Shown in pieces: positions 10,074 through 11,684 of a DNA stretch of 64,000 nucleotides. Numbering within the stretch: position 1 is the first letter of the stretch; each line of letters starts with the position of its first letter. Position numbers and translations under genes: made by a program. The notes under the pieces are model-generated. The model ran no database searches. It was not told the origin of the DNA and worked only from the letters and a program-made list of their open reading frames with translations. Source of the stretch: Minisyncoccia bacterium (lineage in GTDB: Bacteria > Patescibacteriota > Minisyncoccia > Phycocordibacterales > Phycocordibacteraceae); assembly GCA_050011835.1 (NCBI GenBank), contig JBEKII010000004.1, forward strand, positions 8,386-72,385, in the 5' to 3' direction.

Positions 10074-11159
10074 CTACTCACCCATCCAAAACCAAAATTG
10101 TCCTTTAAGTTCTTCTGCGGCTTCATAGGCATCGGCATGGGAGAAAAAGCCAAGGTATGAATTAAGGGAGGCGAGAAGCGTTTCCTCACTCGTCGTGCCA
10201 GCCTTAAATTTCCTGACCTGATCGTGTAATTTACGACTAATCCGCCGCCTTGTTTTCGTGCGTGTTGCGACGTGATATATAAGAGCGACGTAACCGAGAA
10301 AATCGATGCCTTGCCGATATTTTCGAATGAATACTTTATTCGAATGTAGTGATAGCGCGAGCCGTGCATGCAAGAATTCATTGATTTTTGGTATGAGGCT
10401 TTGGAGGTAAGACTGGTCTTCTGATACAATCACAAAATCGTCCGTATATCGCGCGTAATATTTGACTCTCAACTCATGCTTCATAAACTGATCAAATTCG
10501 TTCAGATAGATGTTGGCGAAAAATTGGCTCGTGAGATTGCCGATGGGTACTCCTTTTCTCGTCGTATTTTTACTCTCTCTCTCTCTCTCTCTCTCTCTCT
10601 CTCTCGTAGAGCCCGCCGCCTCGTAGCTTTCGACTATCTCTCTCATAAGCCAACGTGTGTCCGGATCAATGATTCGTTTTTCAAGAATGCCGATCAGGAT
10701 ATCGTGATCGATGCTGTCGAAGAATTTCCACACGTCGCACTTCAGAGAGAAACACGAGTTCTTACCATTTTTGCTTGCCGCGCGAAGGGTTCGCGCCAGA
10801 TATTCCACGCCCTTATGCGTGCCTTTGTCAACTCTGCACGAGAACGAAGTCGGGATAAAGGCCGGCTCGAAAATCGGATTGAGCACTTTGAATATCGCAT
10901 GGTGAAGGACGCGGTCTCGTACCGCTGCTTTGTGTATGCGGCGCAGTTTTGGATCATGAATCAAGAACATTTGATACGCTCCATGGCGATAATGCTTGAT
11001 ACGCAATTCGCGAGCCAGTTTGAAAATTTCATATTCAACATTTTTCTCAAATACTTCAACATCAGGCCTATTTCGCTTGTCGCGTTTGAAAAAATTCCAC
11101 GCCTCGAACAGATTTTCTGTCGAGGTTATCTGCCCATATAAATCCTTATATACCTTCAT
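10074..11159 (-). CDS. brt: DGR reverse transcriptase (bRT-like)
   Basis: N-terminus MKVYKDLYGQITSTENLFEAWNFFKRDKR parallels Bordetella-phage bRT; FLIHDPKLRRIHKAAVRDRVLHHAI; CRVDKGTHKGV; DGR-specific motif 4 PIGNLTSQFFANIY (I/LGxxxSQ instead of QGxxxSP); YxDD box YTDDFVIV. Start trimmed to the Met at 11159 because the upstream extension overlaps avd. Confidence 0.9.
   Translation of the reverse strand: MKVYKDLYGQITSTENLFEAWNFFKRDKRNRPDVEVFEKNVEYEIFKLARELRIKHYRHGAYQMFLIHDPKLRRIHKAAVRDRVLHHAIFKVLNPIFEPAFIPTSFSCRVDKGTHKGVEYLARTLRAASKNGKNSCFSLKCDVWKFFDSIDHDILIGILEKRIIDPDTRWLMREIVESYEAAGSTRERERERERESKNTTRKGVPIGNLTSQFFANIYLNEFDQFMKHELRVKYYARYTDDFVIVSEDQSYLQSLIPKINEFLHARLALSLHSNKVFIRKYRQGIDFLGYVALIYHVATRTKTRRRISRKLHDQVRKFKAGTTSEETLLASLNSYLGFFSHADAYEAAEELKGQFWFWMGE
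10573..10605. repeat. (CT)16 dinucleotide microsatellite inside the RT coding sequence (encodes the (RE)5 run)
   Basis: Direct read: 16 perfect CT units plus C; lies between RT motifs 3 and 4 in an insertion relative to bRT. Confidence 0.95.
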
Positions 11160-11516
11160 ATGAACAACAATAATTTGGACATACCGATTTTCAAGAAAAG
11201 TTACGACCTGTATAAAACCTTTTACGGCTATCGCGCCGACGTTTCCAAGCAAGATCGCTATACGATCTGGCAACGATGCGAGAATACCATTTTCGACGTA
11301 CTCGAAACGATTCTTCTTGCGAGCCAATCGAGCAAAGCGGAAAAATTACCGATCCTTGAAACGGCCAGTGTAAAGCTCAATCTGCTGCGCGTTCTCATTC
11401 GCCTCACGAAAGACGTTAAGGCTATTGATAACAGGAAATACCTCACACTCGAAACGAATGTTGATGAGATCGGCCGGATGCTCGGCGGATGGATTCGCTC
11501 GACAAAAGAACGGTAG
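11160..11516 (+). CDS. avd: DGR accessory variability determinant (Avd-like four-helix-bundle protein)
   Basis: 118 aa, basic and helical; IPIFKKSYDLYKTFYGY... pattern of Avd / 23S-IVS four-helix-bundle family; C-terminal EIGRMLGGWIRS closely parallels bAvd EVGRILGSWIAR. Its ATG abuts the RT ATG back-to-back (CATATG). Confidence 0.8.
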   Translation: MNNNNLDIPIFKKSYDLYKTFYGYRADVSKQDRYTIWQRCENTIFDVLETILLASQSSKAEKLPILETASVKLNLLRVLIRLTKDVKAIDNRKYLTLETNVDEIGRMLGGWIRSTKER

Positions 11517-11517
11517 G

Positions 11518-11545
11518 AGAAATCCCGCTTGAGAGCGGGATTTCT
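11518..11545 (+). terminator. Perfect 12-bp hairpin (AGAAATCCCGCT-tgag-AGCGGGATTTCT) plus T-run; likely avd terminator. On the opposite strand it sits just 3' of the TR
   Basis: Direct read; starts 2 nt after the avd stop; stem ends in TTTCTTT. Confidence 0.5.
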
Positions 11546-11565
11546 TTCGGATAGAGAGACGACTG

Positions 11566-11684
11566 CCGAGCAGACGCGAGACCCAGATTGTCGTTACGGT
11601 TGTTGTCCCAGTTGTTGTTGACGTTGAGGCCCTTCGCATTGAAGTTGCCGACGTTGACGCGATTGCCGTCCGAGTCGATAGATT
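11566..11684 (-). repeat. DGR template repeat (TR), 119 bp, adenine-bearing strand is the minus strand
   Basis: 119/119 alignable with the VR at 12057..12175. The 18 mismatches are all plus-strand T (coding-strand A) in this copy versus C/G/A in the VR. In the target frame, TR adenines sit in AAC/AAT codons. Confidence 0.9.

Follow-up and report, generated by a model that had tools for sequence, protein, structure and literature searches.

The closest described systems to the locus reported here are the diversity-generating retroelements (DGRs) of Bordetella phage BPP-1 and of bacteria of the candidate phyla radiation (CPR). The BPP-1 DGR has the order mtd-avd-TR-brt (Architecture B1), and Wu et al. 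2017 (Nucleic Acids Res 46:11, PMC5758913) place 90% of CPR DGRs in Architecture B3, written TR-(avd)-RT, in which TR is the template repeat, RT is the reverse transcriptase, and the parentheses mark the reverse strand. Here we describe a DGR in a 64,000-nucleotide (nt) stretch of contig JBEKII010000004.1 from a Minisyncoccia bacterium, which we refer to in full as the window. We conclude, with a probability of roughly 0.85, that the locus is a complete and ordinary Patescibacteria-type B3 cassette, target(VR)-TR-(avd)-RT (VR, variable repeat), that its layout is ancient and stable, and that it is most likely expressed as separate transcription units. The original prediction made from this DNA had called the layout non-canonical, and had read it as a local inversion of avd or as the sign of a TR-RT transcript running antisense through avd. 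The features of the cassette are as follows.

12048..12839, minus strand: DGR target gene, 263 amino acids, with the VR at its C-terminal end (the open reading frame, ORF, that contains the VR)
12053..12173, minus strand: VR, the 121-nt repeat of the TR
11942..11970, minus strand: promoter-like site for the TR RNA, -35 TTGCCG (11970-11965), 17-nt spacer, -10 TACAAT (11947-11942), from the promoter scan
11683..11935, minus strand: structured 5' leader of the TR RNA, about 250 nt, seven helices, from RNAalifold and covariation
11562..11682, minus strand: TR, the adenine-biased repeat on the RT strand
11518..11545, both strands: 12-bp hairpin in the interval between the TR and the avd stop (inverted repeat I13), a candidate for a two-way terminator and for the element that closes the TR RNA at its 3' end
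11160..11516, plus strand: avd, 118 amino acids, antisense to the TR and RT (bAvd, DivGenRetAVD)
11167..11194, minus strand: candidate promoter-like site for RT in avd codons 3-12, TTGAAA-16 nt-TATTGT, from the promoter scan
11157..11162, both strands: CATATG junction, the RT start (minus) abutting the avd start (plus), by direct reading
10573..10605, minus strand: (GA)16 tract in the RT ORF, a simple-sequence repeat
10074..11159, minus strand: DGR reverse transcriptase, 361 amino acids (RVT_1)

The RT is encoded by a minus-strand ORF that is in frame in this assembly and matches the Pfam family RVT_1 (E=5e-23). Its translation contains the motifs IGNLTSQ and YTDD, and RTs of DGRs are typified by an IGxxxSQ motif. 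The best NCBIfam model, that of a group II intron RT, scores under its cutoff, which is what a DGR RT would be expected to give; a look-up of the window RT by exact sequence returned no record. The plus-strand ORF is avd, matching Pfam bAvd (E=1.5e-16) and NCBIfam DivGenRetAVD (E=4.8e-22, at 78.2 bits against a cutoff of 80), and 11160 is the earliest start available to it downstream of an in-frame stop. The two copies of the 121-nt direct repeat, 11562-11682 and 12053-12173, are 86% identical. Read on the minus strand (that is, the RT strand), 16 of their 17 differences coincide with an adenine in the 11562-11682 copy, and we therefore assigned that copy as the TR and the other as the VR. The VR makes up the final 40 codons of the target ORF (12839-12048), whose 263-amino-acid product had no sequence match in Pfam, NCBIfam or PDB. 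With a DGR-type RT, an adenine-specific TR/VR pair, a VR at the 3' end of the target gene, and Avd, the locus is a DGR.

To place the layout among relatives we took the results of scans with the RT protein, which gave 80 loci from a species-representative genome collection and 80 more from a metagenome collection, for a total of 160. All 80 matches in the genome collection are Patescibacteria-type metagenome-assembled genomes (MAGs), belonging to 80 different species representatives and with RT identities of 42-79%; the nearest are two Parcubacteria/Paceibacterota MAGs, L001 (77% RT identity) and L040 (79%). In 151 of the 160 loci, the gene directly upstream of RT is an avd homologue encoded on the opposite strand; an avd on the RT strand was seen in none (0/160), and seven of the nine loci that lack an avd match have their RT at a contig edge. 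In every locus with sufficient flank (approximately 58), an adenine-biased TR is found on the RT strand just past the 3' end of avd, with a VR about 500 nt further upstream. Three independent assemblies carry the window sequence across the junction with no difference. The recurrence of one order and one orientation in 151 of 160 loci argues for an old and stable design, and not for a local inversion.

The window itself has the TR at 11682-11562 (minus), avd at 11160-11516 (plus) and RT at 11159-10074 (minus), which is the order and orientation that define B3, and it comes from the B3 host group, Patescibacteria/CPR. The layout of the window is no different from that of the CPR B3 DGRs of Wu et al. 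2017, including the target and VR upstream on the TR strand. We conclude from these comparisons that the layout is the ordinary CPR-type B3, old and stably inherited, with no rearrangement, and the locus is a further case of this known class. The label "non-canonical" was therefore apt only with respect to BPP-1, whose order is target-avd-TR-RT, and does not hold among CPR DGRs, for which B3 is the prevailing architecture. An inverted avd is the published norm in these organisms, and neither a rearrangement nor a new architecture should be read into it. A literature search on divergently oriented avd genes in DGRs, confined to a searchable library, returned nothing relevant. In Roux et al. 2021 there is nothing on avd, on the layout of cassettes or on the orientation of genes. 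The accessible portion of the Wu et al. 2017 text has no treatment of promoters, touching start codons, a hairpin between TR and avd, or a structured leader 5' of the TR.

The window and BPP-1 DGRs share the same four components. In each, the differences between TR and VR are adenine-specific, an Avd is present, and the RT has a motif of the IGxxxSQ type; in both, the VR is located at the 3' end of the target gene and is followed by a conserved GC-rich stretch resembling the initiation of mutagenic homing (IMH) sequence and by an inverted repeat. They differ in that the window avd is encoded on the opposite strand and flanks the TR on the opposite side. They differ also in the placement of RNA structure: in BPP-1 the segment between the TR and brt, 3' of the TR, contains a structured region (Sp, the RT-10 motif, "trailing RNA"; Weinberg et al. 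2017), whereas in the window the covarying structure precedes the TR on its 5' side, and what follows the TR is only about 45 nt long and consists mostly of a single hairpin.

One observation on the VR comes from contig Ga0427951_017931 (loci L161/L163), which belongs to the same population as the window. This contig ends exactly at window position 12078, the boundary between the invariant IMH-like 3' end and the variable part of the VR. The break fits VR heterogeneity in the sample, and may be taken as an indirect hint that the DGR is active. The 16 A-to-N differences between TR and VR are likewise indirect support for mutagenic retrohoming.

For the expression of the cassette we propose a model that builds on the components and their order and orientation, on the conservation of the layout and of the tight avd/RT junction, and on a structured leader and conserved hairpin around the TR. 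The points at which transcripts would start and stop, and the way in which RT and avd would be translated, are predicted from the sequence. The first unit would be the target gene. The second would be a TR RNA of about 420 nt, running from approximately 11935 to approximately 11515 from its own promoter (-10 at 11947-11942) and comprising the 250-nt structured 5' leader, the TR, a 16-nt spacer, and the terminal hairpin (11545-11518). The third would be avd, convergent with the TR RNA and ending at the common hairpin, and the fourth would be RT, divergent from avd. Because the start codons of avd and RT touch, the promoter of each would lie within the first codons of the opposite gene, and both mRNAs would be leaderless or have a very short leader with no Shine-Dalgarno motif, as appears to be the case for many genes of this genome.

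The junction on which this model turns is the hexamer CATATG at 11157-11162, in which CAT (11157-11159) is the RT ATG on the minus strand and ATG (11160-11162) is the avd start on the plus strand, with a spacing of 0. Direct reading and the ORF list bear out the original prediction here, namely that the RT ATG (minus, 11159..11157) and the avd ATG (plus, 11160..11162) stand back-to-back, and likewise that the TR is on the RT strand about 400 nt upstream with avd antisense in between (the distance from the TR end to the RT ATG is 402 nt). It had further placed any promoter of either gene inside the other. This follows from the zero intergenic bases: a dedicated promoter for avd or RT would have to be within coding sequence, and there is no room for ribosome-binding sites.

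RT residue 1 is aligned with an ATG in all close relatives. With the start codons of relatives inferred by a custom script, the gap between the two starts is between -12 and +16 nt in all 105 loci whose RT is at least 50% identical to that of the window; the gaps include 0 (CATATG; 21 loci), -2 (CATG, with two shared bases; 18 loci), +3 (18 loci) and +13 (15 loci). The gap of 0 in the window is the modal state of its clade. In distant relatives (RT identity 42-47%), in which the start codons are less certain, the inferred gaps are spread more widely, extending from overlaps to spacings of 25-80 nt. Since the avd and RT starts are within 16 nt of each other throughout the clade, and often touch or overlap, the signals for their expression must be embedded in coding sequence, which constrains the heterologous expression of such DGRs. 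We did not find head-to-head start codons described before as a clade-wide property of DGRs.

A scan of the window and its relatives did not locate the promoters of avd and RT. For RT, the window has TTGAAA-16-TATTGT in avd codons 3-12 (11194-11167), which ends 7 nt ahead of the RT ATG. The pairing of TTGAAA with a -10 element in the manner of a sigma-70 consensus holds in the window and fails in the closest relatives. TTGAAA itself is conserved because it lies in the Avd codons for "IFK", and because the -10 element is not conserved in relatives we regard this site only as a candidate. For avd, most loci have -10-like elements (TATAAAT, from RT codons 6-9) 13-26 nt upstream, which suggests short leaders.

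The genome as a whole provides context for these signals. A Shine-Dalgarno motif is found upstream of 10 of the 51 long ORFs in the window, against a background of 14%, and 12 of 49 window genes have a TANNNT hexamer whose last base is 5-9 nt ahead of the start codon, against a background of 5.4%. These figures suggest that the genome relies little on Shine-Dalgarno motifs and that leaderless mRNAs may be widespread in it. A second divergent pair in the window (9244/9269) has a spacer of only 24 nt. Embedded promoters that give leaderless or near-leaderless mRNAs for avd and RT would be the most economical reading of the junction, as we infer it from these signals.

A stricter version of this proposal is that the two mRNAs are entirely leaderless, each starting from the A of its own ATG, with -10 boxes in codons 2-5 of the opposite gene and no overlap between the transcripts. 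It draws on the genome-wide enrichment of TANNNT signals and the rarity of Shine-Dalgarno motifs just described, on the window TATTGT that ends 7 nt ahead of the RT ATG, and on the sister clade, in which TAATAT, TAGTAT or TAGAAT precedes many of the RT starts by 6-7 nt. Within the window's own clade, however, the junction shows no conservation of the leaderless signature (a TANNNT whose end is 5-9 nt ahead of the start), which is present ahead of RT in 3 of 40 loci and ahead of avd in 5 of 40, and the better -10-like elements for avd are those at a distance of 13-26 nt, which imply short leaders. We therefore consider strict leaderlessness possible yet doubtful for this pair of genes.

We now turn to the TR. 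A block of approximately 80% nucleotide identity with L001 and L040 starts at window position 11947/11938 and is continuous through the TR, avd and RT, and the 100 nt directly past the target stop codon are unconserved. The block starts 6-8 nt past the -10-like hexamer TACAAT (11947-11942), with TTGCCG 17 nt further upstream, and a comparable -10-like hexamer (TATAAT, TATACT, TAGAAT and others) is present in the same position in 18 of 18 aligned loci. When these 18 loci (alignment A1) were folded with RNAalifold, 64 pairs were obtained, 36 of which have compensatory changes. For the 52 pairs in the leader, 96.5% of the cells are standard pairs, compared with 34-50% when the partners are slid by 1-3 columns, and none of 500 leader shuffles reached the observed values on any measure. 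The abundance of G-U pairs assigns the leader to the TR/RT strand. In an Rfam 15 scan of 9500-13200 only two tRNAs were found, and the TR leader was unmatched by any model, including the motifs RT-1 to RT-19. Matches to RsmY and sraL at 20 bits were rejected as chance.

At the other end of the TR, a hairpin of 9-19 bp is present in the interval between the TR and the avd stop in all 30 loci examined, with sequences that are unrelated between loci, and in 27 of the 30 it ends no more than 4 nt from the avd stop codon. It often consists of a run of A on the 5' side, a GC stem, and a run of T on the 3' side, which is the form of a two-way intrinsic terminator. The window hairpin (11518-11545) folds with -19.1 kcal/mol (z=-4.6) on the minus strand and -21.5 kcal/mol (z=-3.9) on the plus strand. 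Because the conserved block starts after a -10 box, the leader covaries, and the hairpin is conserved, the TR appears to be a self-contained RNA gene, and not the front of a TR-RT messenger. We did not find a structured 5' leader and terminal hairpin on the TR RNA described before. The arrangement, leader 5' of the TR and hairpin 3' of it, is the reverse of that in BPP-1 and supplies a concrete RNA construct with which priming could be tested in the most numerous group of DGRs.

The same evidence bears on a model in which a long TR-RT transcript, antisense to avd where the two overlap, is the only source of RT expression, with inverse coupling of avd and RT as the consequence. TR and RT do lie on one strand with only an antisense avd between them, no conserved RT promoter was found, and on the TR strand the window hairpin has a weak T-tail, with 3 T among 10 nt. 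Nonetheless, a strong hairpin stands exactly between the TR and avd in each of the 30 loci, and in half of these its 3' side is rich in T on the TR strand; the TR RNA looks like an RNA gene in its own right, having its own -10 box and leader; and the window has a promoter-like site 7 nt ahead of the RT ATG. According to Wu et al. 2017 (PMC5758913), moreover, co-transcription of TR and RT is not required. We judge an obligatory TR-RT transcript unlikely, and the original prediction fares poorly on this point, with some read-through still conceivable.

Several observations weigh against the separate units that we propose and temper our confidence in them. These are the lack of a conserved leaderless signature at the junction, the dependence of the gap distribution in relatives on script-inferred start codons, and the unequal T-tails of the hairpin, since only 15 of 30 loci have 5 or more T per 10 nt on the TR strand and only 5 of 30 have as many on the avd strand. 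The hairpin may be an element for RT recognition or priming, instead of or besides a terminator, and some read-through from the TR into RT is possible.

Finally, a recent local inversion of avd from a BPP-1-like order, or a mis-assembly that mimics one, is very improbable: its sole argument is a layout unlike that of BPP-1, and against it stand the recurrence of this arrangement in 151 of 160 loci, never with avd in the other orientation, in many Patescibacteria lineages and 80 species representatives and down to 42% RT identity (the finding in related genomes that the original prediction had itself named as contradicting a rearrangement), the three independent assemblies that match across the junction, the lack of inverted repeats flanking avd (a search for these recovered only the hairpin and short chance matches), and the simple geometry that flipping avd alone in the BPP-1 order would not carry the TR to the other side of avd.

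The avd-RT junction has a further feature in the sister clade (L041-L080; RT 42-46% identical to that of the window). In 37 of 40 of these loci there is a G7-G12 homopolymer on the RT strand, about 10-80 nt upstream of the RT start (for example L044:3954-3963 and L062:3966-3975); in L060 the tract is G26 and is cut by the contig end. The poly-G is often directly 5' of a -10-like hexamer (TAATAT or TAGTAT), with the RT ATG 6-7 nt later. On the avd strand the tract is a poly-C just ahead of the conserved "LPV" codons. Its lengths do not follow multiples of three, and it may serve as a repeat in a promoter spacer or ribosome-binding site that controls RT or avd. Only one pair, L026 and L120, allowed poly-G lengths to be compared in identical backgrounds, and there the tract is near the avd 3' end and not at the junction: with identical 18-nt flanks, it is G10 in L026 (L026:3080-3089) and G9 in L120. 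The avd stop of L026 is unusually far from the hairpin (24 nt), and the poly-G may shift the avd C-terminus.

In addition to the layout, the RT gene itself contains what is the more unusual feature of the locus. The (GA)16 tract on the RT strand (10573-10605) is the only long simple-sequence repeat (SSR) in the 64-kb window, and it encodes RERERERERE in a variable loop just ahead of the KGVPIGNLTSQ motif. Two contigs from other assemblies of the same population are otherwise identical to the window and differ from it only in the length of this tract. Ga0427951_017931, from the Joint Genome Institute (JGI), has 0 mismatches to the window over 4193 nt and carries (GA)17, which places the RT out of frame, and its RT has been called as two genes of 219 and 136 amino acids. 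Ga0187873_1085087 (L100) has 0 mismatches over 1275 nt and carries (GA)18, also out of frame. More broadly, the same site holds 5-18 GA units in 22 related contigs (RT identity 51-100%), and in 8 of the 22 the frame changes exactly at the tract. In these eight the downstream part is open to the last residue, which fits recent switching and not gene decay. All of these lengths were taken from the consensus sequences of assemblies, in which error through assembly or stutter of the polymerase chain reaction (PCR) is possible; a Logan contig ends inside the GA tract and is uninformative on its length.

The tract has the properties of an SSR contingency locus: a long repeat within an ORF, whose unit number varies and shifts the frame in otherwise identical sequences. 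These properties are shared with the contingency loci of Haemophilus, Neisseria and Campylobacter. Here, by contrast, the gene that would be switched is a DGR reverse transcriptase instead of a surface or restriction-modification gene, the repeated unit is the dinucleotide GA, and the host is an uncultured Patescibacterium. Slippage in (GA)n would move the catalytic half of the RT into or out of frame, with 16 units in frame and 17 and 18 units out of frame, and the observed lengths suggest that the tract is a phase-variable on/off switch of the DGR. A search for literature on phase-variable or repeat-controlled DGRs, again within the searchable library, found no report, and the length-variable GA tract, which we did not find described before, is the foremost of the three leads from this locus. 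It makes phase-variable DGR activity directly testable in natural populations.

If the tract does act in this way, a generator of diversity would itself be under a stochastic switch, and the poly-G of the sister clade would perhaps be a second version of such a switch at the level of the promoter. Combined with the compact head-to-head start of avd and RT and with a self-contained, structured TR RNA, this would turn CPR DGRs into bet-hedging devices, in which at any one time just a subpopulation hypermutates its target. We regard the odds of this broader proposal as even.

Lastly, the neighborhood downstream of RT contains two tRNA-Arg genes with anticodons GCG and CCG, at 9815-9887 and 9926-9998 on the plus strand. 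They are convergent on RT and are 76 nt off the RT stop, and transcription out of both of these genes would enter RT antisense, heading for avd.

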